Shown piece by piece: positions 9,002 to 52,106 of a stretch of DNA of 64,000 nucleotides. Made by a program: the position numbers and the translations under genes. Source of the stretch: Candidatus Sericytochromatia bacterium (lineage in GTDB: Bacteria; Cyanobacteriota; Sericytochromatia; S15B-MN24; JAQBPE01); the NCBI GenBank assembly GCA_035285325.1, contig JAYKJB010000021.1:18549-82548 (forward strand), given 5' to 3'. The notes beneath the pieces were generated by a model that saw only the letters and a list, made by a program, of their open reading frames with translations, made no database searches and was not told where the DNA came from. Position 1 is the first letter of the stretch. Every line of letters begins with the position of its first letter.

Positions 9002-9077
9002 ATCGTCACCGACTCTCCCCGCCGCGCAACCTCGCCGGGCCGTGCGCGCGCAACCCCTGCTCCGAAGGAGTTTTCGC

Positions 9078-26153: not shown

Positions 26154-27249
26154 AATGGGCCCTTGGTCCCCCATGCTGCTGCTTGACCGCTACATCATTG
26201 CCGAACTGATCCGCCCTTTTTTGCTGGGCGTGATCGGTTTTGTCGTGATCATGCTGGCGAACACGCTCTACCTGTACGCCGAACTCATCGTCCACAGTGG
26301 GGTTTCGGTCGAAGTGGTGGCCAAGTTGCTGGGATACAACCTGCCCGCCATCGTCGTGGTGACCTTCCCGGTCGCCTACCTCTTCTCGACCTTGCTGGCG
26401 ATCGGCCGGCTGTCGAAAGACAGTGAAGTCACCGCCATGCGCTCGGTCGGCATCAGCTTTCGCCGCATCCTGATGCCCATTCTGGGCGTCTCGTTGGTGG
26501 TGAGTTACGCGGCCTTCTGGCTGAACGATGCTGTCGTGCCCTGGGCCAACCGTCAGACCGTCGACCTGGTTCGCGAGATGGTCCTGCATCAGGGAAAGCC
26601 GGTTTTGAAGGAGAACATCTTCTTCAAGGGGGCCAAGGAGAACCGCTATTTCTATGTCCGCCAGGTCGATCGGCGGACCAATTACATGTATGACGTCTTC
26701 ATTTTCGATAAGCGGACGGGTGGGCAGACCGTCACGATTGCCAACGAAGCCCAGTGGGTAGGCGATACCTGGCTGCTCAAGAACGGGGTGATCTCCCACT
26801 ATGACGAGTGGGGAGCCGTCGATCGCGAGGAGGCCTTCACGGAGTTATCCGTCGTCGTGGCCCTCAATCCTGACGCCTTCTTTGCCGCAGGGGAACGAAG
26901 CCCGCAGGAGAAGAGCAGCAGTGAACTCGCTTCAGAAATCGACACCTTGCGCGGGGGGGGGACGGACACCAAGGCCATGGAAGTCGACTATCATATGAAG
27001 TTCTCCTTGCCCCTGGCCACCTTTTTCTCTGCCATGTTGGCGGCCCCCCTGGGCGCGCAGTTTTCGCGGATGGGGGGCTACATCGGGGTGGTCTTCTCCA
27101 TCATCTTGGTGTTCATCTACTACGTGGTGATGTCTGTGGCGCGCTCTATGGGGAACAACGGCGTGTTGGACCCCATCACGGGCGCGTGGATTCAGAACTA
27201 CCTGTTTGGGGTCGTGGGAGCCTTTCTGCTGTGGCGGATCGACCGCTGA
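26146..27249 (+). CDS. LptF/LptG-family (YjgP/YjgQ) LPS-export permease
   Basis: 'MLLLDRYIIAELIRPFLLGVIGFVVIM' is the typical LptF/G N-terminus. It has six predicted TM segments with a large periplasmic loop. Confidence 0.8.
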   Translation: MFRMGPWSPMLLLDRYIIAELIRPFLLGVIGFVVIMLANTLYLYAELIVHSGVSVEVVAKLLGYNLPAIVVVTFPVAYLFSTLLAIGRLSKDSEVTAMRSVGISFRRILMPILGVSLVVSYAAFWLNDAVVPWANRQTVDLVREMVLHQGKPVLKENIFFKGAKENRYFYVRQVDRRTNYMYDVFIFDKRTGGQTVTIANEAQWVGDTWLLKNGVISHYDEWGAVDREEAFTELSVVVALNPDAFFAAGERSPQEKSSSELASEIDTLRGGGTDTKAMEVDYHMKFSLPLATFFSAMLAAPLGAQFSRMGGYIGVVFSIILVFIYYVVMSVARSMGNNGVLDPITGAWIQNYLFGVVGAFLLWRIDR

Positions 27250-30239: not shown

Positions 30240-30257
30240 CCCCTACGAGGTCCCGCC

Positions 30258-31103
30258 GTGTCCCTTCCATCCTGCCTCCAGCGAGTTCCCGGTGACAGCC
30301 ACTTCCGCCGTTTTCCAGGGCCAGGCGGTCTACCGGCGCTCATCGCGTGTTTGGGGGCCGCCCTGCTGGCAGCCCCTGGTTGCGCTTACAACGCGACCGG
30401 TCTGGCCCCACCCAAGATGCTGATCGCGGAATTCAGCGTGGAGGGCGATCGCCTGGTGCCCTCCCCGAACTGGGCTTACTACCTGGTCATCGACACGAAC
30501 GGCAATCCCGAAGACGCTCCCCTGGTGAACGGCCCGGCTCCGCTCCAGTTTCCCTATCCAGACCCGCGAGCGTACCTTCCCTTCGTCCGCGACGAGCGTT
30601 CCATCTTGGACCGCGAACCCGTGGCCGTGCCCAATTCGGTGTGGTCCACCTACTTCGCCCTCTATGAGGAAGCAGGCCAGTTCGTCCTCTGGCAGGGACG
30701 ACCGAACGCCGACGGCACCATCAACGAGCGCGATCGCCAGTTGCAGCAGGGACGAGAGTGGACGATCAAAGACAACAAAACGCTGCAACTGACCTTGCCT
30801 TTCACCCTGATCCGGGAACCCGGCAAACCCTCAGACTTCGAGGACCCTCCCCAATGGGAAGCCAATCTGGCCGTGGCCCTGCGCGGCAATGCGCGCTGGT
30901 CTCGCGATTTCGTGATTGATCGCTGGGGCCAGGTCCAGAATTTCTCGTTTCCAATCCTGACGCGCCCGATCAACCAGACCCTCTATGACACCGTGGGGGG
31001 CGTCCGTTTCCCGCAAAACCTGCCGGCCGGGGTGGAGGCGCCGAACATGAACATCGTGTCGTTCACCTACCGGGTGGTTTCGGAAGCCGCTCCGCGTCGC
31101 TGA
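30258..31103 (+). CDS. Hypothetical lipoprotein
   Basis: Lipobox 'LLAAPGC' after a basic n-region. No known domain. Confidence 0.55.
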   Translation: MSLPSCLQRVPGDSHFRRFPGPGGLPALIACLGAALLAAPGCAYNATGLAPPKMLIAEFSVEGDRLVPSPNWAYYLVIDTNGNPEDAPLVNGPAPLQFPYPDPRAYLPFVRDERSILDREPVAVPNSVWSTYFALYEEAGQFVLWQGRPNADGTINERDRQLQQGREWTIKDNKTLQLTLPFTLIREPGKPSDFEDPPQWEANLAVALRGNARWSRDFVIDRWGQVQNFSFPILTRPINQTLYDTVGGVRFPQNLPAGVEAPNMNIVSFTYRVVSEAAPRR

Positions 31104-31136
31104 GGCCCTCTGCCTCCGAATTGCAGGGCGTTTTTC
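31104..31136 (+). terminator. Possible rho-independent terminator (imperfect stem plus T5)
   Basis: GCCCTCTGC…GCAGGGC followed by GTTTTT, immediately after the stop at 31103. Confidence 0.35.
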
Positions 31137-31307
31137 AGTCGCAGAACAGAATCCTCTCCCTCAATTGGAGGGGGTCCTGTAAGATCCACTTTGAAAACGA
31201 GCGGCATTCATGTCAGCACCCGTGTCATCGTGGCCTGTCACCATGAACCTCGTTGCGACCCGGCACCGCCGACGAGGTGGTCCACCAAGAACCCCAGGAG
31301 GAATCCC

Positions 31308-32543
31308 GTGTTCAAACAACTTCCACTGATGGGTGCGATGCTCGCGGCATCGCTCACGCTCTCCACGCTGGCTGGTTGCCAGACCCCCGCCACGCCGTCC
31401 ACCGACGCCAAGACGGGAAGCGCCAGTTCGTCGCCCTCGACGGCCAAGCCGTCCACGCCGGCCGCGAACACCACCGCGCCGGCCACCTCCGGGACAGCGA
31501 CCACAGGCGCTGCCGCCGAGACCAAGCCGGGCACCAACGCGCCCGCAGCCGCGCCGAAGGCCGTGGCGGACGCCGGCACCGAGCTGGCCTCCGCGCTGAG
31601 CGCCGAACGCGAAGCGGAAGACCTGGTGTTGCTGGCTGACGAGGGTGAGGCCGCCAAGTACCGCGTTCTCGTGGTGGGCGCTGAGAAGCCCAAGGAAGGC
31701 CAGGTCGGCATCACCGGTATGCTCGACGACGTCAAGGACAAAGCCGCTGCCGCCAAGGACAAGCCAGAACTGGTCAAGGCTGCGATGGCCGGCGCCGCCC
31801 TGGCGCGCCATCAGCAGCGCGTGGCGGACCTGCGTAAGGCCGCTTTCAAGGCCAAGTTGAAGGCCGACGTCAAGGCCAAGATGGACCAACGTCTCGAAGC
31901 CCGCAAGGCGTCAGCCAAGCCACGCCTGGAGAAAATGGCCGACGCCCGTGGCAAGATGAAGGAAGCGGTCAAGGCGGCTAAATGGGTGGACAATGGAGAT
32001 GGTACGGAAACCACCAGTGTCACCATCGACACCAATCGCACCGCGAATGGCAAGAGCATGGCCGGTAAGCGGACCATGGAGCGGACCCGTCGCATCGAGG
32101 ACAAGGTGCTGACCAGCGTGGTCGCCACCTTCTCGCACACGGGCCCGCAAGGCGGCAGCTACACCATGAACCGCAGCAAGACCCTGCAGGAAGATGGCAG
32201 CTACAAGGTCGTCTTCCACGCCGAAATGGCCCTGCCGAACGGCAAGACCCGGGTCACCGATTGGGAGAAGACCATCTCGGCAGACGGCGCCGTGAGCGGC
32301 ACCGGCACTCTGGTGGTCAAGAAGGGCGAAGAAACCCTCAAGACCATCAACCTGACGCTCAGCGGCAGCGAGAAGAAGGAAGTCGCCAAGGCCGAAGACG
32401 GCAAGGAGACGGCCGAAGTCACCCTGCCCGAGGAAGGTGCGCCGACGGCCGTCGTGACCGACGCCGCGGGCAAGACGGAAGCGGTGACCATCGAAGCCGC
32501 CTCAGACGGCACCGTGGTGCCGGCTGAAACCTCCGCGGTCTAG
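31308..32543 (+). CDS. Ala/Lys-rich low-complexity lipoprotein (histone H1-like repeats)
   Basis: The GTG at 31308 follows an AGGAGG RBS. Lipobox 'LSTLAGC'. There is a long KAAAK/AKLKADVKAK repeat region and a C-terminal Thr/Val-rich beta segment. Confidence 0.55.
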   Translation: MFKQLPLMGAMLAASLTLSTLAGCQTPATPSTDAKTGSASSSPSTAKPSTPAANTTAPATSGTATTGAAAETKPGTNAPAAAPKAVADAGTELASALSAEREAEDLVLLADEGEAAKYRVLVVGAEKPKEGQVGITGMLDDVKDKAAAAKDKPELVKAAMAGAALARHQQRVADLRKAAFKAKLKADVKAKMDQRLEARKASAKPRLEKMADARGKMKEAVKAAKWVDNGDGTETTSVTIDTNRTANGKSMAGKRTMERTRRIEDKVLTSVVATFSHTGPQGGSYTMNRSKTLQEDGSYKVVFHAEMALPNGKTRVTDWEKTISADGAVSGTGTLVVKKGEETLKTINLTLSGSEKKEVAKAEDGKETAEVTLPEEGAPTAVVTDAAGKTEAVTIEAASDGTVVPAETSAV

Positions 32544-32564
32544 TCGGAGTCCGATAAACCGAAC

Positions 32565-32602
32565 GAGGGTCGTTCCTCCCGGAACGGCCCTCTTCCTCTT
32601 TT
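32565..32602 (+). terminator. Rho-independent terminator
   Basis: GAGGGTCGTTCC, a TCCC loop, then GGAACGGCCCTC followed by TTCCTCTTTT. This is a 12-bp stem with one G-U pair, 22 nt after the stop at 32543. Confidence 0.55.
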
Positions 32603-32817
32603 CAGGGTCAGGCCAGGGCGAGCGCACCTTGTGGCAAAGTCACCTTCTCCGGGAGCATGGGGGAACCTGACCGAGGCCACAAGTCCTCACAAGTGCTTGC
32701 TGTCTGGGAGATGGGTATGCTGTGGCGGGAGGCTTACGCCCCGGCAGGTTCGAGGAAAGGACACACGCCTTGCGATATCATCCCGGCAGGAGCCAAGCAC
32801 TCCGCACCTGCGTCCTG

Positions 32818-34074
32818 ATGGTTGGCCTGACCGCCCCGATGCTGGGTTGTCAGAGCTCCCCCGTGGGCGCGGCGTCGAATTCAGAGGCTGGAGCAGTCCG
32901 TGAAGCGGTCGTCTTCTGGCAGCCCACCGCGACCTCCCAGCAGCGTCAGGCGCTACGCACGGCTCTACCGCCGGCCCAGTCGGTCCCCCTGACCCCCCAC
33001 GCCGAACTCTGGCTGGCGCCCCCAGGAACCTTCCAACAGGTTCGCCAGTCGTCGCTCGTGCGCGGTGTGGAACCCAACCAACGGCGTTCGCTGCTCCCCC
33101 CCCCGGCCTCGCCCGGACTGGCCTTTCGCTTGCAGGCAAGCCCCCCACTCTCCCAGTGGCACCTGAGTCGAGCTCGTTTCCCCCAGGCCTGGGCGGCCTC
33201 TCGGGGCAAAGGGGTGACCGTGGCCGTGATCGACTCGGGGGTGGATCCGAACCATCCTGATCTCAAGGCCAACCTGCTCCCACTGATTGACGAGGTCACC
33301 GCCATGGGGCGGAAAGACGTGATCGACGGCAAAAACTTCGACGGGATGGACAGCCATGGTCACGGCACCCACGTCAGTGGTCTGATCGCTGCTGTGACCC
33401 GTCCCGACGGGTCGATTTCGGGCGGAGCGCCTGAGAGCAAGATCCTGCCCGTCAAGGTGACGCCCCTGAGTGGCGAGACGGATGACGCCACCATCGCCAA
33501 AGGCATCCGTGATGCGGTCGACCAGGGAGCACGCGTGCTGAATCTGTCGATCGGCGGTCCCGAACCCAGTCCCATCCTTCTGGAGGCGCTGAACTATGCC
33601 ATTCTCAAGGGGGCGCTCCCGGTGATTGCGGCCGGCAACGATGGCGGCCGGGTCAATTTTCCAGCCGCCTACCCAGGCGTGGTGGCGGTCGGCTCCATCA
33701 CCGACTCCGGCAAGGTGGCCGATTATTCCTGCCGAGGAGAGGGGCTGGTCATCGTGGCTCCCGGGGGAGGGCAGACCGGTGGCCGAGAGGGCAGCCCCTT
33801 GCTCTCCACGATGCCGACCTACCCGGCCTTCGGTTCGAGCAGTGCGCGCGCCGGCAATGGCACCGGCACCCTCGCCGGCACCTCCATGGCCGCCCCACTG
33901 GTATCGGCCGCGGCGGCGCTCGTGATGGCCCGCTTCCCCGAGCTATCGGCCCCCCAAGTCAGAACCCGCTTGGCCGCCACCGCCAATGAGGGACAGGCGC
34001 AACGCTGGGAAGCCAACACTGGCTTCGGTGCCTTGAACGCCGAGGCCGCCGTCACGGAACGAACGGACCAATAA
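32818..34074 (+). CDS. Subtilisin-like serine protease (peptidase S8)
   Basis: The catalytic triad motifs are present: 'VAVIDSGVD', 'HGTHVSGLIAA' and 'GTSMAAPLVSAAAAL'. The ATG at 32818 is preceded by a signal-like 'MVGLTAPMLGC'. Confidence 0.85.
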   Translation: MVGLTAPMLGCQSSPVGAASNSEAGAVREAVVFWQPTATSQQRQALRTALPPAQSVPLTPHAELWLAPPGTFQQVRQSSLVRGVEPNQRRSLLPPPASPGLAFRLQASPPLSQWHLSRARFPQAWAASRGKGVTVAVIDSGVDPNHPDLKANLLPLIDEVTAMGRKDVIDGKNFDGMDSHGHGTHVSGLIAAVTRPDGSISGGAPESKILPVKVTPLSGETDDATIAKGIRDAVDQGARVLNLSIGGPEPSPILLEALNYAILKGALPVIAAGNDGGRVNFPAAYPGVVAVGSITDSGKVADYSCRGEGLVIVAPGGGQTGGREGSPLLSTMPTYPAFGSSSARAGNGTGTLAGTSMAAPLVSAAAALVMARFPELSAPQVRTRLAATANEGQAQRWEANTGFGALNAEAAVTERTDQ

Positions 34075-34150
34075 GGTGCGCTCGCCTGGGTATAATGCGA
34101 GCGCTGGAAGCGTCCGCCGTTGGTTGCTTCGGCGGAGCATCGCTCCCACG

Positions 34151-35572
34151 ATGAACAGGTTCTGCGTGTCCGTTCGCCCCAAGACCTCTGCCGCGCGGCC
34201 CGTGCCGCTGACCCCCACGGCCCGACTCCTGCTGGGCGGCCTGTGGGCACTGGCAACGGTCCAATCGTGTACGTTTCCGGACACCCGGCCCTCTCCGATC
34301 GTCTGGCCCACGCCGACGTCCCCGGCGCCCAGCGTGGCCGCGCTAGAGCCGCTTCGCCCGTCCCAACCGGTCGCCCCGGTCTACGCGGACCTGGGCTTCG
34401 AGGTACACGGGGGCGGGTTGCTGATCGATGTCCGTGCTGCCGGCAAGCCCGTGGAAGGGGCCTGGGTCCGCCTGCTCGGGCCTTCCCTGGCGGCCGGTGG
34501 CACGAAAGCGAACGGACAATTGACGCTCTCGCCCATCCTGCCGGGCAGCGATTACAGGCTTTGGATCACCACGCCGGGGCTGCAAACCGTCATCTCGAAC
34601 CCTTTCACCTTGAAAGCCAACAGCACGGACACTTTGACGCAGCGGTTCGAACTGAAAGCGGCGGGACGCCTGCGGGGGCGAGTCGTGGCTGATGGGCAAG
34701 GGGTGGCAGGCGCGGTGGTCAGTGACGGACTCAACAGCGCCGTCTCCGACCCCACGGGCGAATACGAACTGCCCGGCGTCGCGCCAGGGCAGGTGCGGCT
34801 CACCGCGAGCAAGCCCCGCTTTCAGCTCGCCAACCAGACCATCGCCGTCAGCGCAACCGTCCCGGCGGTGGCGGACTTCAGCCTGTCTCCCGCCCCGGCG
34901 ACCCTCACGCTGGACACGAGTTTGGCAGCCAATGAGACGCAGCGTCTGGCTTGGAATGATCGGTTTCGGGGGTTGAGCCGGCAACTGGCGGCGAGTGGCT
35001 GGACCATCAAGGAGGCCCCTGCGGAACCGGCCACGGTCTGGGTCCTGGCGGGCGTGGCACGCGACCTGACCCGCCAGGAGATCGAACGTCTGACCGACTT
35101 TGTGTCGCAAGGCGGCAAGCTGATTGTGCTGGGGGAATGGGGAGGAAGTGCAGGTTTCCGCACGTCAGCCGCCAATACCCTGCTGCACGGACTGGGCGCT
35201 CATCTGGCCCCTGATCTGGTCCGCGACTTCGTCAATCCCAAGAATCCCAACTGGATCACCGTGCAGCGCTTCCTGAGCTCGCATCCCAGCGTGGCCGAAG
35301 TTCGCTCCTGGCGTGTATACGGTGCCAGTTCGGTGTTTGGGCTATGGCCGCTCCAATCGTTGGCCGAAACCTCCAAAGACGCGTTCCGGCTGCAATCGTC
35401 CTCTCAAACGGCCTCGCAATCGCTCCTGGTGGGTGGTCCCTTCAAGGCCGGCAAGGTGATTGTGGTGGGGGATACCTCCTGCTTCACGGATGAAGACAGC
35501 GACCGGGATGGACAACCCAACCTCGCTGACGGCGACAATTTCCGTCTGGTTGAACGCCTCTTGTCCTGGTAA
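34151..35572 (+). CDS. Secreted hypothetical protein with carboxypeptidase-regulatory-like beta-sandwich and C-terminal DUF4350/GATase-like domain
   Basis: Signal 'ARLLLGGLWALATVQSC'. 'GRVVADGQGVAGAVVSDGL…TGEYELPGVAPGQVRLTASKPRF' matches the CarboxypepD_reg pattern. The C-terminal 'LIVLGEWGGS…VVGDTSCFTDED' is flavodoxin-like. Confidence 0.5.
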   Translation: MNRFCVSVRPKTSAARPVPLTPTARLLLGGLWALATVQSCTFPDTRPSPIVWPTPTSPAPSVAALEPLRPSQPVAPVYADLGFEVHGGGLLIDVRAAGKPVEGAWVRLLGPSLAAGGTKANGQLTLSPILPGSDYRLWITTPGLQTVISNPFTLKANSTDTLTQRFELKAAGRLRGRVVADGQGVAGAVVSDGLNSAVSDPTGEYELPGVAPGQVRLTASKPRFQLANQTIAVSATVPAVADFSLSPAPATLTLDTSLAANETQRLAWNDRFRGLSRQLAASGWTIKEAPAEPATVWVLAGVARDLTRQEIERLTDFVSQGGKLIVLGEWGGSAGFRTSAANTLLHGLGAHLAPDLVRDFVNPKNPNWITVQRFLSSHPSVAEVRSWRVYGASSVFGLWPLQSLAETSKDAFRLQSSSQTASQSLLVGGPFKAGKVIVVGDTSCFTDEDSDRDGQPNLADGDNFRLVERLLSW

Positions 35573-35593: not shown

Positions 35594-38188
35594 GTGATGC
35601 CGATGCCCCCCGTCATTTATTGTCCTGAATGCGACGCCGAGAATGAGGCCAAAAGCCTCGTCTGCCTGGCCTGTGGTCACGCGTTCAAGGGTGATCCGAC
35701 GGCCCTGCTGTTCTCCCACGCCACGGCTCCTACCCACGCCCCCCCGCCCCCGGTGGCCTCGCCCGCCACCGATCACCCCGTCGGCAGTGGCCTGCTGCCA
35801 GCTGACAGCGTGCTGCAGAACCGCTACCGCATCACGCAGCTGCTGGGGCAGGGGGGCATGGGAGCGGTCTATCTGGCCAGCGATGCGCGCTTCTCTTCCC
35901 GGACCTGCGTGATCAAGGAAATGCTGGACCATTTCAACGATCCGGAACAGCGGGCGCAGGCCACCGAAAGCTTTCACCGCGAAGCCGATTTACTGGCCAC
36001 CTTCAAACATCCGGGTATCCCGGAAGTCTACGATCGTTTCACCGAGGCCAACCGACACTATCTGGTGATGGAATACATCAACGGGGTGGATCTAGAGCAA
36101 CGCTTGCTCGACAACGGGCTCCCTTTCACGGAGAAGGAGGTCATCGATTGGTCGATTCAATGTTGTGACGTGCTGTCCTACCTGCACCACCAGAACCCTC
36201 CCATCATCTACCGCGACATGAAGCCCGCCAATATCATCACGACCCATTGGGGCAAGGCGTACCTGGTGGACTTCGGCATTGCGAGGTTTTTCAATCCCGT
36301 GACCCGCGGCACGATGATTGGCACCCAAGGGTATGCCCCGCCCGAGCAGTATCGGGGACAGGTGGACCCCCGCTCGGACATTTACGCCTTGGGCGCCACC
36401 ATGCACTACCTCCTGACCGGACGCGACCCTCAAAACGAGGCGCCCTTCAGCTTCCCGCCCGTCAGCACCTTGAACGCTTCGGTGTCGCCTGAGATGGAGA
36501 TGCTGATTCTCAAGGCGCTTGATCCGGAGCCGGACAATCGCTTTGCCAGCGCGGATGAAATGCTGGGGCAGTTGATGGCCATCGGTGGGGATGAAACCAA
36601 TTTCGTCCGCGATTGCCCCCATTGCGGACACCGCTCCTCAGTGACCAGGCAGTTCTGCCCGAACTGCAAGCAATACATTTCGAAAAAGGCCCACGTGCTC
36701 AAGCCGCAAGACGGCACGGGCACGATCATGACCGACGCAGCGGGATACCATCAGGTCAAGGCGGCAGGGCGCACCGCAGGCCTGGTGGCTGGCAACCGCT
36801 CCGCCACCGCCACCGTGCTGGCCGTTCCCACCGGTCGGGTCGATTTCTCGCTGCGACGCGTGTCGCCGCTGGCCCTCGGCGCCGTCCTGACCGCCGGCCT
36901 CGCCCTGTCTGGCTGGCTGAGCTGGCAATGGTGGAACTCTCGCCCCGAGCCCATCACGAGCGAGGGCCAGACCTGTTTTATGCCGGGAGACCGTCCAGCC
37001 AAGGCAGAGGGCCAGGCGGCCTTTGCCCGCGGCCAGTTCGTTCAGGCGGTCGATGCCTACAGGCGTGCCATCGAGCAGACACCTGCGGATGGCGAAGCCC
37101 GCATTTACCTGCAAAATGCTCACGTGCGCCTGGCCAAGGCGGATAGCGTGAAGGTGGCGATCGCCGGGGCATTCTCCGGACAGCGCTCTCCTCTCGCGCA
37201 GGACATGCTGAGAGGGGCCGCTTTGGCCCAGCAACAGGCCAACGCCAGGGGACGTCTTCCCAAGATTCAACTGACCTTGCTGGACGATGCTGGGTCGACC
37301 TTGCGGGCGCTGGAAGGGGCCGATCTGGTCAGCCACGACCCAAGCCTGGTAGGTGTTTTGGGGCATCTCGGCACCCAGACGACCCAGGCGGCCTTGAAGC
37401 GTTACGCTGACGGCGGTGTTCCCGTCATCACGCTGGTGCCGGGCTCCTGGGACGCCCTGGATGCTCCCAAAGCCTTGGTGCGGTTTGCCGGTGGGGAAGC
37501 AGACTGGGCAGCGGCTTGGATCGACCAGGCCAAGCGGGTGTGGCGGGCCGACAAGGTAATCCTGCTCGAGTCGGGTGACGAGCGGAGCGGACGCAGCGCA
37601 ATGGGAACCCATGTGAGTCGCTGGGCCGTCGAAAAGGGCCTGGGGTATGAGACGGTGAGTTGGGAAGCACAGAATTCAGCGAGCATTCTCAGCCAGCTCA
37701 AGCCCCAGGCGAAGACGGTGCTGTTGTGGGCCGGCAATCTGGAGGACGCCGTGAGAATCAAATCAGACCTCGCGAGTGCAGGAAGCAAGGCCCCTCTGCT
37801 GGCGGGCCCGCTCGCTTACCAGCCTGAACGGTTGGCCGGGCTGGGGGCGGCGGCCGAAGGCCTCACGTGCCTGGTCCCTTACGCCGTGGACCACCGAATG
37901 GCCGGTTCCAGCGATTACGAAATGGAGTTTCGCAATCGCTTCCAGACCGAGCCGGGCTGGATGGCCTCCCTCACCTACGATGCCCTGGCCTACCTCGTCC
38001 AGGCCCTCGACCGAGTGGGGCCCCATCGTGACGCGCTGGGCAATGCCTTGCTCAGTTTGGGGCAGAACGGTCACCGAGGGCTGATAGGCCCCTTGCATCT
38101 CAATCGCGATGGCGAAGCCCGGCGTCCTATGGAACTATTCGAAGTTCGTTCGGGACGCTACACTTCCCTGCGCCTGACCGGAATGTGA
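35594..38188 (+). CDS. Ser/Thr protein kinase with N-terminal and juxtamembrane zinc ribbons, one TM, and periplasmic type-1 (LivJ-like) solute-binding sensor domain
   Basis: The kinase looks active: 'LGQGGMGAVYLA', 'CVIKEM', 'YRDMKPANI', 'DFGIAR' and 'GTQGYAPPE'. The zinc ribbons are 'CPECDAENEAKSLVCLACGH' and 'CPHCGHRSSVTRQFCPNCKQ'. A TM segment 'LALGAVLTAGLALSGWL' precedes a Peripla_BP_6-like domain of about 400 aa with a TPR. Confidence 0.9.
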   Translation: MMPMPPVIYCPECDAENEAKSLVCLACGHAFKGDPTALLFSHATAPTHAPPPPVASPATDHPVGSGLLPADSVLQNRYRITQLLGQGGMGAVYLASDARFSSRTCVIKEMLDHFNDPEQRAQATESFHREADLLATFKHPGIPEVYDRFTEANRHYLVMEYINGVDLEQRLLDNGLPFTEKEVIDWSIQCCDVLSYLHHQNPPIIYRDMKPANIITTHWGKAYLVDFGIARFFNPVTRGTMIGTQGYAPPEQYRGQVDPRSDIYALGATMHYLLTGRDPQNEAPFSFPPVSTLNASVSPEMEMLILKALDPEPDNRFASADEMLGQLMAIGGDETNFVRDCPHCGHRSSVTRQFCPNCKQYISKKAHVLKPQDGTGTIMTDAAGYHQVKAAGRTAGLVAGNRSATATVLAVPTGRVDFSLRRVSPLALGAVLTAGLALSGWLSWQWWNSRPEPITSEGQTCFMPGDRPAKAEGQAAFARGQFVQAVDAYRRAIEQTPADGEARIYLQNAHVRLAKADSVKVAIAGAFSGQRSPLAQDMLRGAALAQQQANARGRLPKIQLTLLDDAGSTLRALEGADLVSHDPSLVGVLGHLGTQTTQAALKRYADGGVPVITLVPGSWDALDAPKALVRFAGGEADWAAAWIDQAKRVWRADKVILLESGDERSGRSAMGTHVSRWAVEKGLGYETVSWEAQNSASILSQLKPQAKTVLLWAGNLEDAVRIKSDLASAGSKAPLLAGPLAYQPERLAGLGAAAEGLTCLVPYAVDHRMAGSSDYEMEFRNRFQTEPGWMASLTYDALAYLVQALDRVGPHRDALGNALLSLGQNGHRGLIGPLHLNRDGEARRPMELFEVRSGRYTSLRLTGM

Positions 38189-38206: not shown

Positions 38207-39874
38207 TTGCAAGCCATCAAAGGACGGAATGCCATGCTTGTTGACCAACTCCAGCCGCTTGATGCGGGCGCGATGCTGGCGGATCGCTATCGGGTCGAAC
38301 GTTTTCTGGAATTCAAGCACGGTTCGAACATGTACCGGGCGATCGACACGGTCACCAACTACGTGGTGATCGTGAAGGAACAGCCGGACGCGATGAAAGC
38401 CTTCACGCAACTACAGGGCGGAGAGTGGGCAGAGCAAAGTGCCGGGAATCCCTATCAGGGTGAGTTCCTGATTCTGCGCTCGGTCAGCTATCCCACGGTC
38501 GTGAAGGCTCTGGACATCTTCAAGAACGAGGGACGGGCCTACCTGATCATCGAGCAATTGGAAGGCCGGGATCTGGGCTACTACATGACCCAGAATCAGG
38601 TGACGGTGCAGCAATCGCTGGAATGGATGATTCAGCTCTGTCAATCGATCAGCCAGCTTCATCGAAGGCAGATACTCCACCTTGACCTTCACCCGCGCTG
38701 CATCGTCGTGGCGCCTGACAATCAGCGGGTGCGCCTGACGGGTTTCCACCGCGCCGTCGTCCTGCCCTTGGCCGCGGAGGCCACCATCGGGGCCACTGCG
38801 GGCTACTCGAGCCCTGAGCAGATGGGAATCTACGAACTGCCCATCGATGCTCGCTCGGATATCTACTCGCTGGGAGCCATCTGGTTTCAGTTGCTGACGG
38901 GTACCAATCCCGCCGACCTCGTGGAGGCCGAGTGGGGCACACTATTTCCGGCGGTGAGTGAGTCTTTGGTGGCGCTGCATCCACAGATCGCGCGGATTGT
39001 CACCAAGATGCTGGAGTCCGACCCCGAGCGTCGTTACGAATCCATCAACGATCTGAAAAACGAATTACTGGAACTGATCAACAACCCGTTGCGGCGAACC
39101 GGCCACTATTCCGATGTCGGCATGGTGCGCGAGGGCAACGAAGACGCCGTGGGACTGCGCGACATTGAATTCGTCAACCTTTCTCGCCAGCGCGGCCTGG
39201 GCCTCTATGTCGTGGCCGATGGCATGGGCGGCGTCAATGCCGGCGAGGTGGCGTCCTCGATCGCCATCGAAGAGTCCTTGGCGACGTTGGAGCAGGAACT
39301 GCCGTTTTCCCGTCTGGAACACGCGATCGATCCCAGTGAGATGATCCAAGCCGCCCTGACAACCGCCATCAAACGAGCCAATCTTCGCATTTACGAAACC
39401 GGTCGGGGAGATGAACGCCTTTCCGGCATGGGCACAACCCTGACGATTGGCGTCGTGTTCGGCCAGATCCTGTATGTGGGCCACGTGGGGGATAGCCGAG
39501 CCTATGTGATCAATCGCTGGGGCATCGAAAAAGTCAGCCGAGACCACTCGCTGGTCGGGCGCCTGGTCGAGATTGGTCAGATCACCGAGGAGGAAGCCCT
39601 CGTGCATCCTCAGCGCAACCTGATTTACCGGGCGCTGGGTACCTATCCGAACGTGGAAGTGGATACGTATCAACGATCCCTGAAACTGGGTGACTGGGTG
39701 CTGCTTTGCAGTGATGGGCTGACTGGACACCTCAAGGACCCGGAACTACAATCTATCGTTTCCGAACACAGCGATCCGCAACTGGCTGCTCAACATCTCG
39801 TGAATCTGGCGAATTTGCGCGGAGGGGAAGATAACATCTCCGTGGTGCTCGTCAATCTTGCCGAATACACCTGA
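38207..39874 (+). CDS. Pseudokinase-PP2C fusion: kinase-like N-domain lacking the DFG Asp, plus active PP2C Ser/Thr phosphatase
   Basis: The kinase-like region has 'YVVIVKE', a catalytic loop 'LHLDLHPRCIVV' where K has become H and N has become C, and 'LTGFHRA' in place of DFG. The PP2C part has 'LYVVADGMGG', 'VGDSRAYV', 'LLCSDGLTGH' and 'GGEDNISVVLV'. Confidence 0.85.
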   Translation: MQAIKGRNAMLVDQLQPLDAGAMLADRYRVERFLEFKHGSNMYRAIDTVTNYVVIVKEQPDAMKAFTQLQGGEWAEQSAGNPYQGEFLILRSVSYPTVVKALDIFKNEGRAYLIIEQLEGRDLGYYMTQNQVTVQQSLEWMIQLCQSISQLHRRQILHLDLHPRCIVVAPDNQRVRLTGFHRAVVLPLAAEATIGATAGYSSPEQMGIYELPIDARSDIYSLGAIWFQLLTGTNPADLVEAEWGTLFPAVSESLVALHPQIARIVTKMLESDPERRYESINDLKNELLELINNPLRRTGHYSDVGMVREGNEDAVGLRDIEFVNLSRQRGLGLYVVADGMGGVNAGEVASSIAIEESLATLEQELPFSRLEHAIDPSEMIQAALTTAIKRANLRIYETGRGDERLSGMGTTLTIGVVFGQILYVGHVGDSRAYVINRWGIEKVSRDHSLVGRLVEIGQITEEEALVHPQRNLIYRALGTYPNVEVDTYQRSLKLGDWVLLCSDGLTGHLKDPELQSIVSEHSDPQLAAQHLVNLANLRGGEDNISVVLVNLAEYT

Positions 39875-39924: not shown

Positions 39925-40392
39925 ATGATCGTCTGTCCCAACTGCCACGCTGAAAACAAAGACGGCGTCAGTTACTGCGACGAATGCGGCACAAAACTGG
40001 AAGATGCCGTGAAACCAGCCCAGGTGGCCGCTGCGGAGATGTCGACCGGAGAAATGGGCCCGCCCGCCCAGCTGGTGATCACGCGCGGCGGAACGGTGGG
40101 CCGGGAGTTCCCACTGGAACAACGGGGGGAAACCCACATTGGCCGTTGGGATCCGGATGGTGGCGCATTTCCGGAAGTGGACCTGACCCAAGATGATCCC
40201 GAAGCCAAGATTTCCCGCAAGCATGCGCGAATCTTCTTCCGAGGCGGCGCCTATCACCTCGAAGACGTGGGGTCTCTGAATGGCACCTTTGTGAATCGGG
40301 GTTCCCGCTTGATGCCCGGCTCGCCGCAAGAGCTCAGAAATGGGGACGAACTGCTGTTGGGCAAAACGTTCTTCCGCTTCCAGTTGACCTGA
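39925..40392 (+). CDS. FHA-domain protein with N-terminal zinc ribbon
   Basis: 'CPNCHAENKDGVSYCDECG' is a zinc ribbon. The FHA core is 'THIGRW…ISRKHARIFFRGGAYHLEDVGSLNGTFVNRGSRL…GDELLLGKTFFRF'. Confidence 0.85.
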   Translation: MIVCPNCHAENKDGVSYCDECGTKLEDAVKPAQVAAAEMSTGEMGPPAQLVITRGGTVGREFPLEQRGETHIGRWDPDGGAFPEVDLTQDDPEAKISRKHARIFFRGGAYHLEDVGSLNGTFVNRGSRLMPGSPQELRNGDELLLGKTFFRFQLT

Positions 40393-40541: not shown

Positions 40542-41678
40542 ATGTCAGAACCCAATCCCAGCTTCGGCCAGATGATTGCGGAAGGCATGCGGCTTAAAGG
40601 CCTGGATTACCGAACGCTCGGCAAGCTGATCGGGGTCTCTCACGGCTATCTGTGGCAGATGGTGAGTGCCGACAAGCGCGCCATCAACGACCCCGGACTG
40701 AAACGCAAGCGACCGAGTGAAGCCGTCGTCAGGCAGCTGGCCGAAACGCTGGAACTGGACCCGAAGGCCATGTTGCGAGCGGCCGGCCACGACGTGGACG
40801 GCATTGACTTGACCATTTCCGGCCCGACCCGTTACACCCCCTATCCCGTCACGGCGCGTCAGCTTTACCAGGATGGGGTTCAGGCCGCGGCCAAGGGCCA
40901 CGCCGACCGTGCCGTGGCCCTGCTGGAAGCAGCCCTTCAGCAGGGGGGTGTCTCCGTCGTCAATGTGCACGCGGGGCTGGGAATGGCCCATTTCCAGGCG
41001 GGCCGCTACGAGGAGGCCATCGGGGAATTCGACGCCTGTCTGAACACCTCCGCAGAGGATCGCGAGGGGGCCATCGCAACGGCCGACCTGCATTACAATC
41101 GCGGCCTGGCGCATCAACGCCGGGCCCGTCAGGCCCAAGGGGAGGCTCAGCGGGCCCACCGCATCCGAGCGGGGGCGGACTTTCGGCGCGCCATCGCCCT
41201 CGAAGGAGACAGCCAGGACCTCTATTACTCGGCGCTCTGTTACATGTGCCTGGAGCGAAATCAGGCGCGGCGCGTGCTGGTCTACGGCAGCGATTTCCTC
41301 CACCGTCAAACCACAGGACATACCCGCCACACCACCGCCGCCTTGGACATCCACCTGTTCATGGCCTACGCGCACGTTTCCATCGGCGGCGGCGTTGCCC
41401 CCGCGCACGCCATCGCCATGGTCGACATCACCCTGCAACTGTGTGACACCTACTGGTTCGCTCACTTCGTCAAATCGGCGCTTCTGGCGACTCGGACAGC
41501 GGGACACGCCCGCCGACGCCAGGCGTGCCTGGAGGCGGGATTGTTCCACGTGCGTCGGGCGATCCAACTGCACCCCCCGGCTCGGGACCATTACCAGCGC
41601 GAATTGCAAGGCGACTTCGTGAACTGGCAAGCGGAGCCAGCCTTTACCCGGTTACTGACAGCTGAGGAGGCCACCTGA
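40542..41678 (+). CDS. XRE-type HTH plus TPR-repeat regulator
   Basis: The N-terminal 'GLDYRTLGKLIGVSHGYLWQMVSADKR' is an HTH. Several TPR units follow ('YQDGVQAAAKGHADRAVALLEAALQQ', 'HFQAGRYEEAIGEFDACL'). Confidence 0.75.
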   Translation: MSEPNPSFGQMIAEGMRLKGLDYRTLGKLIGVSHGYLWQMVSADKRAINDPGLKRKRPSEAVVRQLAETLELDPKAMLRAAGHDVDGIDLTISGPTRYTPYPVTARQLYQDGVQAAAKGHADRAVALLEAALQQGGVSVVNVHAGLGMAHFQAGRYEEAIGEFDACLNTSAEDREGAIATADLHYNRGLAHQRRARQAQGEAQRAHRIRAGADFRRAIALEGDSQDLYYSALCYMCLERNQARRVLVYGSDFLHRQTTGHTRHTTAALDIHLFMAYAHVSIGGGVAPAHAIAMVDITLQLCDTYWFAHFVKSALLATRTAGHARRRQACLEAGLFHVRRAIQLHPPARDHYQRELQGDFVNWQAEPAFTRLLTAEEAT

Positions 41679-42400
41679 TGTTGCACCGAATCCTGAAGCC
41701 GGTCCAGGCCTCCCTGACCCTGCTGATCGCCATGAGTCTGGGGGGGTGCCTCCTGCCGCAACCCGATACCCCGATCGTCCCCCCCTTGCTCGGAGGCCTC
41801 AAAGGGGCCCCGATGGCAGCGGCCCCGCCACTCGCGAAACGGCCTGACCTGAGCACCAAGGAACCCCTGAAACAGGAAAACACGCCGCTCACAGCCGGCC
41901 CACTCACCGACGGACCTCTGACAGCCGCGGGCCCGGCCCTGAGTGCCCCTCTGCCCTCAGCCGCCGCCTCCGCAGCCCCCATTCCCACGGCGGGAGACCT
42001 CGCAGCCAGCGTGGGCTCCCTCGAACCTCCGGCCGCTCCCGCCGCGACGATGGGGTCGGTCCGCGCGGAGGGAGCCGCCCAGCGCGCGTCCGAAACCGTT
42101 TCGGCCGATGAGTTGGTCGCCTCGCAAGCCGCTACCATCACGGCAGAATGGCCAACCGGTCTTGGTGTCGGCCTGGTGGAGCTCCGGGCCATCGCGACCG
42201 ATCGGCCGTGGTCATTCTCCAACGGTCAGACTCAGCGCGTACCGGCAGGAGACTACCGAGTCTCGGCCAACCGCGACAAGGTGAGGCTGGAGTCGGATGA
42301 AAACCTGCGCCTGAAGGCGGGAACGGCCAAGCGAATTCGTCTCAGCATCGCCTCTGAGACCCTCCAATTCACGGTAGAGGAGCTTTCCCCAGCGCCGTGA
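41678..42400 (+). CDS. Hypothetical lipoprotein (Ala/Pro-rich linker plus small C-terminal beta domain)
   Basis: Its start overlaps the HTH-TPR stop in an ATGA arrangement. Lipobox 'AMSLGGC'. No known domain. Confidence 0.55.
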   Translation: MLHRILKPVQASLTLLIAMSLGGCLLPQPDTPIVPPLLGGLKGAPMAAAPPLAKRPDLSTKEPLKQENTPLTAGPLTDGPLTAAGPALSAPLPSAAASAAPIPTAGDLAASVGSLEPPAAPAATMGSVRAEGAAQRASETVSADELVASQAATITAEWPTGLGVGLVELRAIATDRPWSFSNGQTQRVPAGDYRVSANRDKVRLESDENLRLKAGTAKRIRLSIASETLQFTVEELSPAP

Positions 42401-42732: not shown

Positions 42733-43352
42733 CACTCCCATACCAGCGGCGGGAGAGAGGTGTCCTCTCCCTTCAGGCCAACCCCATCCCAAGCGTAATG
42801 TTCTCGCCGCAACGTGCCACGGGGTTTCTCAAACTGAAGGCGAAGCCCGCGCGTGGCCACAGGCTGCATCGTCAGCGCCAGCTGACGTCGCCGCAACACC
42901 ACCTCAAATCCAGCTGTGGGAGCGGAGCGTCGAAACACCATGACGGTTTGCTTGCCAACCGGCCCGTGAGGCTGCCCACGCGCCACCAGTTCCTCCACGC
43001 CATCTCCGTCGAGATCGCGAACTTCCAGCGCGGTGAGCCTGCCAGGAACCGATCGACCGGCCTTGGAAACAAATTGCACACGTTCGAAGTCGTGGGCCGT
43101 GCGTCGGTACAGGACGATGCGGCTTTCATCGTCCCAGGCGCTGATGCTGCTCTGCTCCGGGGCGTGAATCGCGATCGCCCACTCACCGGTCTTGAGGCGC
43201 ACAGCGGCGTGTGGGGTATGCCCCAATGCCAGCAAGCGCTGCCCGACGGCCGCACGCACGAACAGGACCAACGGATCAGGCTGAGGCGCAGGGGCGGCCG
43301 CCAGGCTGAGAGCAGCGAGGAGCAGCCAGACCACGGGGGGCAAACGCGACAT
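42732..43352 (-). CDS. Secreted hypothetical protein with FG-GAP/VCBS-like DxDGDG motif
   Basis: Signal peptide 'VVWLLLAALSLAAAPAPQP' and 'VRDLDGDGVEELV'. Confidence 0.5.
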   Translation of the reverse strand: MSRLPPVVWLLLAALSLAAAPAPQPDPLVLFVRAAVGQRLLALGHTPHAAVRLKTGEWAIAIHAPEQSSISAWDDESRIVLYRRTAHDFERVQFVSKAGRSVPGRLTALEVRDLDGDGVEELVARGQPHGPVGKQTVMVFRRSAPTAGFEVVLRRRQLALTMQPVATRGLRLQFEKPRGTLRREHYAWDGVGLKGEDTSLPPLVWE

Positions 43353-43422
43353 GGCGGCATGTTACCCCATCCACGGGCAAGTTGCCGCTCCCATTTCCCA
43401 GGGTGACAGGCCCCCGTGTAGC

Positions 43423-50795: not shown

Positions 50796-50799
50796 GTTC

Positions 50800-52098: not shown

Positions 52099-52106
52099 GG
52101 CAGGGC

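Follow-up and report, generated by a model that had tools for sequence, protein, structure and literature searches.

The signals that activate bacterial Hanks-type kinases are mostly unknown, and a direct fusion of a binding fold to such a kinase would be a simple system in which to study how a kinase is switched on by flytrap closure. Fusions of this type are already known, and NCBI has a standard name for them, [quoted passage not shown]. A "Kinase + ANF receptor" fusion of Nostoc sp. PCC 7120 was catalogued in 2005 (Krupa & Srinivasan, 2005; PMC1262709), and two independent fusions of a kinase to a type-1 periplasmic-binding protein (PBP1) are P0186 of Streptomyces alkaliphilus and the metagenomic protein P0205. 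The order shared by the Nostoc type is an N-terminal kinase, a membrane segment and a C-terminal Peripla_BP_6 or ANF_receptor domain. No experimentally characterised kinase-PBP1 fusion was found in the literature searched for this architecture.

The protein described here is a further member of this fusion type. It is encoded in a 64,000-nucleotide stretch of DNA, hereafter the window, from a Candidatus Sericytochromatia MAG, a non-photosynthetic relative of the cyanobacteria. Taken alone, it is an unremarkable example of an architecture for which databases already have a name, and its sensor shares only 21–27% identity with those of P0205 and P0186. In contrast to the other kinase-PBP1 fusions, members of its family have a zinc ribbon on either side of the kinase and a TPR cap ahead of the binding domain, and are found in a fixed row with pseudokinase-PP2C and FHA genes, while the pocket of the window member is without the amino-acid anchors. 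It is among the few signalling modules described for the Sericytochromatia, which are sister to the cyanobacteria and do not photosynthesise. Because its natural variants keep or lose the ligand anchors on an almost invariant kinase, the family would be convenient for coupling studies.

The control of a Hanks kinase by an outside solute-binding protein, with an FHA protein as readout, is known from the mycobacterial GlnH-GlnX-PknG-GarA system (PMC6069109), in which PknG is, according to a 2021 review, the only characterised Ser/Thr kinase stimulated by a solute-binding protein (PMC8050422). The window system likewise combines a solute-binding fold predicted to lie outside, a Hanks kinase and an FHA protein, but GlnH (type 2, SBP_bac_3), GlnX and PknG are three proteins, whereas here a single polypeptide with a type-1 fold would fill all three roles. 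PknG also has a Cys4 (rubredoxin-like) module beside its kinase domain, plus a TPR domain; the latter is cytoplasmic, whereas the TPR of the window protein is predicted to be outside.

The PknB/PrkC kinases, with PstP (a PP2C phosphatase) and FhaA/FhaB, offer a second parallel: they too are single-pass proteins with a cytoplasmic kinase, an external sensor, a juxtamembrane region rich in Thr and linkage to PP2C and FHA genes, although the phosphatase of the window row is fused to a pseudokinase. The best NCBIfam kinase match, PknB_PASTA_kin (NF033483), reaches 207 bits against a cut-off of 450 and covers the kinase domain only, and Pfam finds no PASTA repeats in the window protein, which rules out a PknB/Stk1-type PASTA kinase. 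More remotely, the PBP1 flytrap also serves as the ectodomain of single-pass or 7TM receptors in animals, namely the natriuretic-peptide receptors, which have a kinase-homology domain inside, and the class C GPCRs. The ectodomains of GABA-B and mGlu receptors are among the Foldseek matches, at 13–16% identity. The kinship in sequence to these ANF_receptor proteins is remote and their outputs differ, and no common origin of the fusion is implied.

Gene and domain organization

The open reading frame that the sequence-only reading had reported exists as described and comprises 864 codons. The database copy of the protein, P0001, is 100% identical but has 861 residues, and the N-termini of the orthologues align from the ATG at 35603; on these grounds, this codon, rather than the GTG at 35594, is probably the translation start. 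Residues are nevertheless numbered from the GTG (864-numbering) unless 861-numbering is stated. About 20 full-length orthologues were found, all of them from Sericytochromatia. The protein consists of a Cys4 zinc ribbon, a Hanks-type kinase, a second Cys4 zinc ribbon, a Thr-rich juxtamembrane linker, a TM helix, a TPR-like cap and a LivJ-fold binding domain (Table 1), and it is confirmed that a real membrane-spanning Ser/Thr kinase is encoded here.

Table 1. Features of the receptor kinase gene and its row, in window coordinates
Feature	Position	Strand	Basis
S8 subtilase, probable lipoprotein; first gene of the probable transcription unit	32722..34074	+	Peptidase_S8 E 4e-61; lipobox-like MLGC
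CarboxypepD_reg + DUF4350 (GldG-like) probable lipoprotein	34076..35572	+	Pfam; lipobox-like VQSC
Maximal ORF, start GTG 35594	35594..38188	+	
Receptor Ser/Thr kinase gene, 861 aa (probable ATG start)	35603..38188	+	P0001 length; orthologue N-termini
N-terminal Cys4 zinc ribbon, C10-P-E-C13...C24-L-A-C27-G	35621..35677	+	Pfam Zn_Ribbon_1; conservation
Hanks-type Ser/Thr kinase domain	35825..36544	+	Pfam Pkinase E 3.5e-38; motifs intact
Second Cys4 zinc ribbon, C341-P-H-C344...C355-P-N-C358, with YISKKAHVL tail	36614..36700	+	Pfam DZR; invariant Cys
Cytoplasmic juxtamembrane linker (predicted side), conserved TDAAG and S-A-T405-A-T407...P-T413-G motifs	36701..36862	+	Orthologue alignment
Single transmembrane helix, residues 424-447	36863..36934	+	Kyte-Doolittle; AF2
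TPR-like three-helix cap between TM helix and binding domain (predicted extracytoplasmic)	36998..37138	+	Pfam TPR_11; AF2
LivJ-fold type-1 periplasmic-binding (Venus flytrap) sensor domain	37145..38185	+	Pfam Peripla_BP_6; PDB profile matches; Foldseek
Pseudokinase-PP2C phosphatase fusion	38234..39874	+	Pfam Pkinase and PP2C; NCBIfam Stp1_PP2C_phos
Zn-ribbon-FHA protein (phosphothreonine reader)	39925..40392	+	Pfam FHA E 6.4e-16, Zn_Ribbon_1 E 7.9e-8
TPR protein with weak XRE-like N-terminal HTH	40542..41678	+	Pfam TPR_16; HTH_31

The kinase domain (Pfam PF00069, residues 78-317, 131.9 bits against a cut-off of 31.7) is 84–96% identical across the family. Its catalytic motifs, which comprise the glycine loop G85-Q-G-G-M-G90, Lys108 of the VIK motif, Glu130 of helix alphaC, Y206-R-D208-M-K210-P-A-N213, D226-F-G and P-P-E251, are invariant in 20/20 orthologues, and by these motifs the domain is predicted to be an active, RD-type kinase. 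The anti-phage kinase systems PD-T4-6, Mad6 and PglW, to which PADLOC gave matches, were rejected as assignments: the matches cover the kinase domain only, the partner genes are absent and the row belongs to the conserved core genome.

Both zinc ribbons score slightly under their curated cut-offs. The N-terminal one matches Zn_Ribbon_1 at residues 9-30 (E 3.4e-5, 23.9 bits against 25), with its four cysteines at least 90% conserved among the 20 orthologues, and the second matches DZR (E 5.7e-6, 26.8 bits against 27.3), with invariant cysteines and a tail in which YISKK is invariant and the remainder nearly so. In the juxtamembrane linker, Thr405 and Thr413 are invariant and Thr407 is at least 90% conserved (T402, T410 and T404 in 861-numbering). 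By analogy with PknB-type kinases, these three threonines are candidate sites of autophosphorylation and FHA docking.

Membrane topology

There is only one hydrophobic segment in the protein, and it is found at the same place in 20/20 orthologues. With a Kyte-Doolittle peak of 1.52, against 1.7–2.6 in the other 19, the segment of the window protein ranks lowest in hydrophobicity within the family. Within 15 residues of it, three Lys/Arg lie upstream and one downstream. The full-length AlphaFold2 (AF2) model shows it as a helix (422-445 in 861-numbering), although the overall pLDDT of this model is 68 and its kinase half is poor, so that the packing of the zinc ribbons is unreadable from it. 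Since there is a single TM segment with more positive charge on its upstream side, the C-terminal domain is predicted to be extracytoplasmic and the kinase half cytoplasmic.

The sensor domain

The C-terminal domain matches Pfam PF13458 (Peripla_BP_6) at residues 518-854 with an E-value of 1.4e-28 (101 bits against a cut-off of 31.7), spanning positions 1-341 of the 343 in the profile. A profile built from the family matches solved LivJ/LivK-type proteins with E-values of 8e-45 to 2e-31, among them 3TD9 (7.7e-45), 4GNR (1.3e-39) and LivJ (1Z15, 1.9e-32). The AF2 model of the sensor has a pLDDT of 89.3 and a pTM of 0.91, and its top Foldseek match in the PDB is T. maritima LivK (3TD9; E 6.5e-20, TM 0.85, rmsd 3.0), followed by LivJ/LivK/Atu2422-type proteins. 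Profile and model together show a genuine LivJ-type type-1 PBP with a two-lobe Venus-flytrap fold. The flytrap is thus common to the window domain and to the E. coli LivJ/LivK and T. maritima LivK proteins (1Z15, 1USG, 3TD9; HAAT family), but identity is 16–22%, and the window domain, unlike these free proteins, is joined to a kinase.

Before this domain, TPR_11 is matched at residues 473-506 with an E-value of 6e-4, under the Pfam cut-off. The AF2 model has three helices here (sensor positions 19-29, 33-46 and 51-65; pLDDT 95–98), with an invariant D..E..IY..N motif. An LpoA-type lipoprotein, which also joins TPR and PBP1-like domains, is ruled out by the Pfam scan, in which LppC gave no match at E-values up to 0.01, and by the best 50 PDB fold matches of the sensor model, among which LpoA is absent.

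The sequence-only reading had anticipated most of this architecture: the intact kinase core between two zinc ribbons, the single TM segment after them and the periplasmic-binding-like domain at the C-terminus were all recovered by profile, model and conservation, and the predicted topology places that domain outside rather than in the cytoplasm. It erred in describing the TPR (~468-514) as embedded in the binding domain; the TPR precedes it, its three helices following the TM helix and ending ahead of the domain's first strand.

The ligand pocket and its divergence

In LivJ, Ser79, Thr102, Tyr202 and Glu226 are taken here to be the anchors of the alpha-amino and alpha-carboxylate groups of the amino acid. 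The window protein has Thr594 for Ser79, which is the sole conservative pocket change relative to LivJ, LivK, 3TD9 and 4GNR. Elsewhere, A100-A101-T102 is aligned with V615-P616-G617, Tyr150 with Gly666, Tyr202 with Asn715 and Glu226 with Pro739. This assignment comes from sequence alignment at 16–22% identity to the solved proteins, and two alignments disagree by 1-2 residues near positions 100-102 and 226; in the alternative phmmer alignment, Trp619 is at the Thr102 site and Leu740 at the Glu226 site, so that Thr and an acidic residue are missing there in this alignment too. Of the three stretches in which the sensor model is least confident, two are located at, or next to, the altered 100-102 and Tyr150 loops.

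The family is divided in this respect. The window protein and six relatives have lost the anchors, and 13 orthologues (P0005, P0008 and P0010-P0020) keep them, with Ser (Ala in P0020), [ST]-[SA]-T and Asp at the sites of Ser79, 100-102 and 226. For these 13, amino-acid sensing is plausible because Ser79, Thr102 and Asp226 are kept, and it is probably ancestral. Tyr202, however, is replaced, mostly by Ser, even in these canonical orthologues, so amino-acid binding is putative for them too. In the window protein, the LivJ-type alpha-amino and alpha-carboxylate anchors are gone, and its signal is therefore most likely not a free branched-chain amino acid; the sensor of its lineage appears to have been re-tuned to another ligand. 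Of the earlier proposal of a periplasmic small-molecule sensor, possibly for branched-chain amino acids, the outside location and the LivJ-type fold have held up, while the suggested ligand has not, as the anchors are replaced.

The binding domain is also the variable part of the protein, with 27–35% identity across the family against the far higher values of the kinase. In four orthologue pairs, the dN/dS of the sensor is 0.12–0.28 where the pocket is divergent, with dS near saturation (0.8–1.1), and 0.27–0.29 where it is canonical; these pairs are from sister lineages, and the window sensor has no close relative. The corresponding values for the kinase are 0.008–0.12. At a dN/dS of 0.12–0.29, the tested sensors are under purifying selection and not decaying. 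In an exhaustive search of 1.84 billion representatives, the nearest sequences to the window binding domain were those of its own family (128 bits, 30% identity), and no domain swap was detected.

The gene row

The kinase gene is the third of a conserved row that runs from the S8 lipoprotein protease through the CarboxypepD_reg/DUF4350 gene, the kinase, the pseudokinase-PP2C and the Zn-ribbon-FHA gene to the HTH/TPR protein. The DUF4350 gene is immediately upstream of the kinase gene and adjoins it in 9/9 orthologous loci fetched by exact protein look-up; its product (37–65% identity) is, besides the receptor kinase, the one fast-evolving protein of the row. The S8 gene is syntenic in L001-L004. 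The pseudokinase-PP2C and FHA genes, which had been noticed downstream of the kinase from the sequence and are borne out by Pfam matches, follow it in L001-L004 as well, and the pseudokinase-PP2C also in L085-L088.

The pseudokinase-PP2C protein matches Stp1_PP2C_phos with 253 bits (cut-off 230). Its PP2C domain is intact, and its kinase domain has HLDLHPRC for HRDLKPxN, TGF for DFG and no Gly loop, a degenerate state that is kept in five loci. In the FHA protein, the phosphothreonine-binding residues of the GR, SRKH and NGT motifs are invariant in five loci, and both proteins are 66–90% identical among the five compared loci. The HTH/TPR protein, 51–63% identical in L001-L004, matches HTH_31 in its first 70 residues (E 0.003, under the cut-off) and is a candidate output regulator.

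A terminator-like hairpin lies upstream of the S8 gene at 32565-32592, and no plus-strand terminator-like site was found between 32592 and 42928. The gaps between genes from the S8 to the FHA gene are 1-50 nt, and these genes are probably one transcription unit. The row is located in the conserved core genome and adjoins Lpt genes.

Proposed mechanism and alternatives

The mechanism, partners and output that we infer for the kinase are those of a single-pass receptor, to which a probability of about 0.65 is given: the flytrap would signal through cap and TM helix to the kinase, with the FHA protein as reader, the PP2C as reset and a signal other than a branched-chain amino acid. The extracytoplasmic half would be a rigid TPR-like cap fused to a LivJ-fold flytrap, whose ligand-dependent closure or re-packing would be relayed via the cap and the TM helix. 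This would alter kinase dimerisation and autophosphorylation at Thr237/240/244 of the activation loop and at Thr405/407/413 of the juxtamembrane linker. The resulting phosphothreonines would recruit the co-transcribed Zn-ribbon-FHA protein, and the co-transcribed pseudokinase-PP2C would reset the system, its dead kinase domain probably being a docking module for the active kinase.

Two alternatives concern the place of the protein in the cell. The marginal hydrophobicity of the window segment would allow the whole protein to be cytoplasmic, as TPR and Peripla_BP_6 modules also occur together in a distant STAND NTPase homologue that is probably cytoplasmic (P0243) and in the CHAT proteins P0262, P0161 and P0169. 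This is very improbable, given that the segment is clearly hydrophobic at the same position in 19/19 other orthologues, with positive charges on the kinase side, and that in the window protein it is 24 residues long, modelled as a helix and ends in a Trp-rich interfacial stretch. The names given by NCBI to P0001 ("ABC transporter substrate-binding protein") and P0009 ([quoted passage not shown]) would instead have the domain supply substrate to a Liv-type importer, the kinase being an accessory. Such a name derives from a domain match and is not evidence, and the kinase's own TM helix tethers the binding domain to the membrane. A scan of 39 long ORFs of the window and the called genes of L001-L004 yielded no LivH/M-type permease and no LivG/F-type ATPase, and the only ABC gene among the 39 (43351-45237) encodes a fused exporter-type half-transporter, which makes the importer extremely improbable.

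Within the receptor reading, the nature of the signal can be seen differently. LivJ-like binding of free L-amino acids, branched-chain or other, by which the sensor would report the periplasmic amino-acid supply, would agree with the sensor's nearest solved relatives in sequence and fold, which are Leu/Ile/Val-binding proteins, with the anchors retained in the 13 orthologues and with the interpretation given to the Nostoc fusion (Krupa & Srinivasan, 2005; PMC1262709). The FHA protein, moreover, has a sub-threshold match (54 bits against 200) to OdhI, an FHA regulator of 2-oxoglutarate dehydrogenase. For the window protein this is decidedly unlikely: Thr102 is replaced by Gly (or Trp), Tyr150 by Gly, Tyr202 by Asn and Glu226 by Pro (or Leu), none of which could form the conserved hydrogen bonds to the amino-acid backbone, and the window domain alone matches LivK at only 2e-10, against 1e-32 to 1e-45 for the family profile. 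Other LivJ-fold proteins have aromatic acids, urea, 2-oxo acids or fatty acids as ligands (titles of 4EVQ, 7S6E, 4OBB and 4N03). A more elaborate proposal, and something of a long shot, is that an ancestral amino-acid flytrap was re-tuned under continued selection to another extracytoplasmic cue, maybe a peptide or envelope fragment set free by the co-transcribed S8 and DUF4350 lipoproteins, within a self-contained, six-gene, Sericytochromatia-specific protease-kinase-FHA-HTH/TPR cassette with the pseudokinase-PP2C as docked off-switch. It is likewise unlikely, if a little less so than amino-acid sensing, that the flytrap binds no small molecule and is a protein-interaction or dimerisation module, docking for example one of the two lipoproteins or a product of the protease. 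The loss of the anchors and the weakness of the model around two substituted pocket loops would fit this, as would the DUF4350 gene that always precedes the kinase, the S8 gene that does so too in four loci with wide flanks, and the lipoprotein-like nature and, for DUF4350, the fast evolution of their products. Against it, the divergence of the DUF4350 protein is just as great between loci whose sensors are canonical, which leaves no specific co-variation between it and the sensor, and the purifying selection on sensors of the divergent type fits a new small-molecule ligand equally well.

Domain architecture

The open reading frame of the kinase is real and has a 100% identical database copy of 861 residues (P0001), named [quoted passage not shown] by NCBI. 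The ATG at 35603 is its probable start, since all orthologue N-termini align from there; residue numbers follow the 864-codon frame. Two Pfam matches lie above the curated cut-offs, Pkinase (E 3.5e-38) and Peripla_BP_6 (E 1.4e-28, full profile covered), while a zinc ribbon, a double zinc ribbon and a TPR fall slightly under them. The sequence-only reading had described an intact kinase core between two zinc ribbons, and both features are upheld. The catalytic residues are complete (G85xGxxG90, K108, E130, Y-R-D208, N213, D226-F-G and P-P-E251) and their motifs are invariant in the 20 full-length orthologues. The ribbons are credible despite their sub-threshold profile scores because every one of the eight cysteines reaches at least 90% conservation in the orthologue alignment, some being invariant.

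Features of the window and of the kinase protein (nt, window position; aa, residue)
Feature	Position	Strand	Remark
2-Oxoacid dehydrogenase and lipoate genes	nt 2911-10493 and 15422-16129
STAND-like ATPase/GGDEF protein	nt 10554-15356	-	1600 aa
LptF/G permease, 1017-aa and 281-aa genes	nt 26146-31103	+	directly upstream
Lipobox-like N-termini	nt 30258-35572 and 41678-42400	+	four or five genes
Terminator-like hairpin	nt 32565-32592		12-bp stem
Kinase reading frame	nt 35594-38188	+
Kinase domain and second zinc ribbon	nt 35825-36700	+
TPR protein 3' of FHA gene	nt 40542-41678	+	weak XRE-like helix-turn-helix at N-terminus
RapZ-like/CofD(YvcK)-like/WhiA trio	nt 49854-53507	-
BatA/VWA/TPR pair	nt 54739-57536	-	aerotolerance-type
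Zinc ribbon	aa 9-30
Pkinase	aa 78-317
Double-zinc-ribbon match	aa 341-359
Hydrophobic segment	aa 424-447
TPR	aa 473-506
Peripla_BP_6	aa 518-854
LivJ Ser79 equivalent	Thr594		alignment
LivJ Ala100-Ala101-Thr102 equivalent	Val615-Pro616-Gly617		alignment
LivJ Tyr150 equivalent	Gly666		alignment
LivJ Tyr202 equivalent	Asn715		alignment
LivJ Glu226 equivalent	Pro739		alignment

The cassette of zinc ribbon, kinase and zinc ribbon is also found without the binding domain in other Sericytochromatia proteins of about 485 residues that are 53-60% identical. In further relatives, whose kinase regions are 37-49% identical, a kinase with or without zinc ribbons is paired with TIR, PQQ-propeller or TPR ends. 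Its presence with various ends indicates that the cassette is combined with different sensors (P0023-P0032; loci L010-L012 and L048). A role as an anti-phage defence kinase was rejected, as the PADLOC matches span the kinase domain alone and the locus belongs to the syntenic core genome.

The single transmembrane segment expected before the C-terminal domain is supported by a hydrophobic stretch at the same alignment position in all 20 orthologues, which AF2 models as a helix. In the window protein, Lys and Arg are enriched upstream of it (3 versus 1 within 15 residues). A kinase inside and a sensor outside are very likely rather than proven, because, of all these segments, that of the window protein has the lowest hydrophobicity (1.52 versus 1.7-2.6). 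The full-length AF2 model has an overall pLDDT of 68 and drops under 50 for the greater part of the kinase, so its kinase and zinc-ribbon geometry is unusable.

The TPR had been read as embedded in the binding domain, but its three helices (sensor positions 19-65, pLDDT 95-98 in AF2) come before the first strand of that domain. They hold the most conserved motif of the entire outer region, D..E..IY..N, and this TPR cap may couple the flytrap mechanically to the transmembrane helix. An LpoA-like reading of the TPR and PBP1 combination was rejected, since Pfam gives no LppC match and LpoA is absent from the top fold matches. A TPR directly ahead of Peripla_BP_6 recurs in unrelated CHAT (protease) and STAND (NTPase) proteins (P0262, P0161, P0169 and P0243), some of them from Synechococcales cyanobacteria. 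TPR and binding domain seem to move together, and the pair looks like a portable sensor used beyond kinases and beyond the periplasm.

Sensor fold and binding pocket

The C-terminal domain is a LivJ-like type-1 binding protein, in agreement with the sequence-only reading, for which the Peripla_BP_6 match was the suggested check. A profile built from the 20 sensor regions matches solved LivJ/LivK-type proteins (3TD9, E 7.7e-45; 4GNR, 1.3e-39; LivJ 1Z15, 1.9e-32), and AF2 gives a confident model of residues 450-864 (pLDDT 89.3, pTM 0.91). Its best fold matches in the PDB are again these proteins (3TD9: TM 0.85, rmsd 3.0), followed lower in the list by binders of aromatic acids, urea, 2-oxo acids and fatty acids and by GABA-B/mGlu ectodomains.

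In LivJ and LivK, Ser79, Thr102, Tyr202 and Glu226 anchor the amino-acid backbone, with Tyr150 lining the side-chain pocket. By alignment, 3TD9 and 4GNR carry the same Ala/Ser-Thr, Tyr, Tyr, Asp set. Thirteen canonical orthologues (P0005, P0008 and P0010-P0020) keep Ser79 (Ala in P0020), [ST]-[SA]-Thr at 100-102 and Asp226; Tyr202 is replaced in them, mostly by Ser. The residues of the window protein at the LivJ positions are listed in the table. An independent phmmer alignment moves two of the sites by 1-2 residues, yet finds Trp and Leu there, not Thr and Glu. The anchors are also gone in six relatives (P0002-4, P0006, P0007 and P0009), in each group differently, with a [PA]-[DE]-W motif in P0002-4 and P0009. 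In the AF2 sensor model, two of the three least confident stretches coincide with or adjoin the substituted 100-102 and Tyr150 loops. Since the anchors are replaced and model confidence is low at or next to these pocket loops, the branched-chain amino acid proposed as the sensed ligand is unsupported for the window protein; for the canonical orthologues and the ancestor, such a ligand is plausible. Of the original interpretation, which is partly supported, the architecture and the signalling partners stand, and the ligand does not.

Divergence of the sensor on a conserved kinase

Between the window protein and its 19 orthologues, identity is 84-96% in the kinase domain and 27-35% in the binding domain. 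Pairwise dN/dS, taken from orthologue pairs of other lineages, is 0.008-0.12 and 0.12-0.29, respectively. With P0002, the closest relative, identity reaches 96% in the kinase and falls to 35% in the binding domain; neighbouring genes are 46-90% identical between these two genomes. The kinase domain and second zinc ribbon are under unusual constraint: across the orthologue set their pairwise identity is 81-99%, against 37-90% for other proteins of the same genomes, and two pairs have a kinase dN/dS of 0.008-0.013, two further pairs 0.04 and 0.12. Such constraint suggests that partners use most of the kinase surface, and its near-invariance is consistent with a protein that has several obligatory partners. 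The canonical sensors share 31-86% identity (44-86% without the outlying P0020), and the three divergent lineages are 25-35% identical to one another and to the canonical group.

Such divergence could stem from a recent domain swap or from decay of the sensor, and both were rejected. An exhaustive phmmer search of 1.84 billion cluster representatives makes a recent swap from any sampled donor unlikely, as it found nothing nearer to the window binding domain than its own family (best 128 bits, 30% identity). That search returned 2181 relatives; a word-indexed search gave three matches for the sensor alignment and a single weak one for the window binding domain alone, missing its own entry, so that indexed-search negatives are unreliable where a domain is as divergent and as rich in Ala, Gly and Leu as this one. 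As to pseudogenisation, two divergent-type pairs have binding-domain dN/dS of 0.12 and 0.28, values that are rough, with dS at 0.8-1.1, and come from other lineages, the window lineage having no close relative; two canonical pairs give 0.27 and 0.29. The similar ratios indicate that purifying selection acts about equally strongly on the tested sensors and that they are not decaying. The family offers a useful twist in a natural series of sensors that either keep or lack the amino-acid anchors, all joined to a nearly invariant kinase.

Conserved gene row and proposed mechanism

Loci in which the kinase protein shares 48-61% identity with that of the window conserve the gene row, in full in L001-L004 and, for the genes immediately flanking the kinase, in L085-L089. 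Its order is S8 protease, CarboxypepD_reg/DUF4350 protein, kinase, pseudokinase-PP2C, Zn-ribbon-FHA protein and a TPR protein. The pseudokinase-PP2C and FHA genes, proposed as signalling partners, hold up as candidates for that role, both following the kinase in L001-L004. The pseudokinase lacks the Gly loop and has HLDLHPRC for HRDLKPxN and TGF for DFG, changes that are conserved; its PP2C half clears the NCBIfam Stp1 cut-off, and the FHA domain retains the GR, SRKH and NGT motifs. HTH_31 matches the first 70 residues of the TPR protein below the Pfam cut-off (E 0.003). This protein, 51-63% identical in four related loci, may be the transcriptional output of the module.

Lipobox-like N-termini occur near the kinase in the S8 protease, the CarboxypepD_reg/DUF4350 protein and two unknown proteins (450 and 240 residues), and perhaps in the unknown 281-residue protein. 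Co-variation of the sensor with the DUF4350 lipoprotein was rejected, as the latter is fast-evolving everywhere and shows no specific pattern across five loci. A strong terminator-like hairpin just 5' of the S8 gene splits it from the 450-residue gene, and a consensus-match scan gave no further plus-strand site up to 42928, so that, on sequence, the S8 gene onwards would fit one transcription unit. No Liv-type permease or ATPase gene was found among the 39 long reading frames scanned across the window; hence the "ABC transporter" name merely follows from the domain match.

We propose that binding of a cue would alter the conformation or packing of the flytrap and TPR cap, a change that the single transmembrane helix would relay to the kinase, which, being an RD kinase, probably needs activation-loop phosphorylation. 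Conserved threonines of the activation loop (237, 240 and 244) and juxtamembrane linker (405, 407 and 413) would then be phosphorylated and could dock the FHA protein, the pseudokinase-PP2C, held via its dead kinase domain, would reset the state, and the HTH/TPR protein is a candidate output.

Known relatives

The window protein is a new, uncharacterised member of an already known architecture. A "Kinase + ANF receptor" protein of Nostoc PCC 7120 was catalogued in 2005 and interpreted as binding branched-chain amino acids (PMC1262709), the kinase-binding-protein fusion has a standard NCBI name, and unrelated kinase-PBP1 fusions occur in Streptomyces and metagenomes. Pkinase-PP2C fusions are likewise catalogued (PMC12088040). 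A literature search for an experimentally studied kinase-PBP1 fusion returned catalogue-type mentions only. The closest studied logic is that of GlnH-GlnX-PknG-GarA, called the sole characterised Ser/Thr kinase stimulated by a solute-binding protein (PMC8050422). Among 185,579 species representatives, the full-length family is limited to Sericytochromatia and "Cyanobacteria bacterium" MAGs.

Other genes of the window

The LptF/G permease gene, the 1017-residue gene (weak LptD_N match only) and the 281-residue gene are ordered as in L004 and L001. These genes show the presence of an outer membrane with LPS and place the kinase row in the conserved core genome. Genes for a Glu/Leu/Phe/Val dehydrogenase (minus strand), lipoyl synthase, 2-oxoacid dehydrogenase E1-beta, E2 and E3 and lipoate ligase lie 20-30 kb from the kinase; OdhI/GarA-type FHA regulators control such enzymes in actinobacteria. 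Between them, a large protein joins an AAA_16 ATPase and GAF to a C-terminal GGDEF diguanylate cyclase domain. The RapZ/CofD/WhiA trio and the BatA/VWA/TPR pair look like ordinary housekeeping context.
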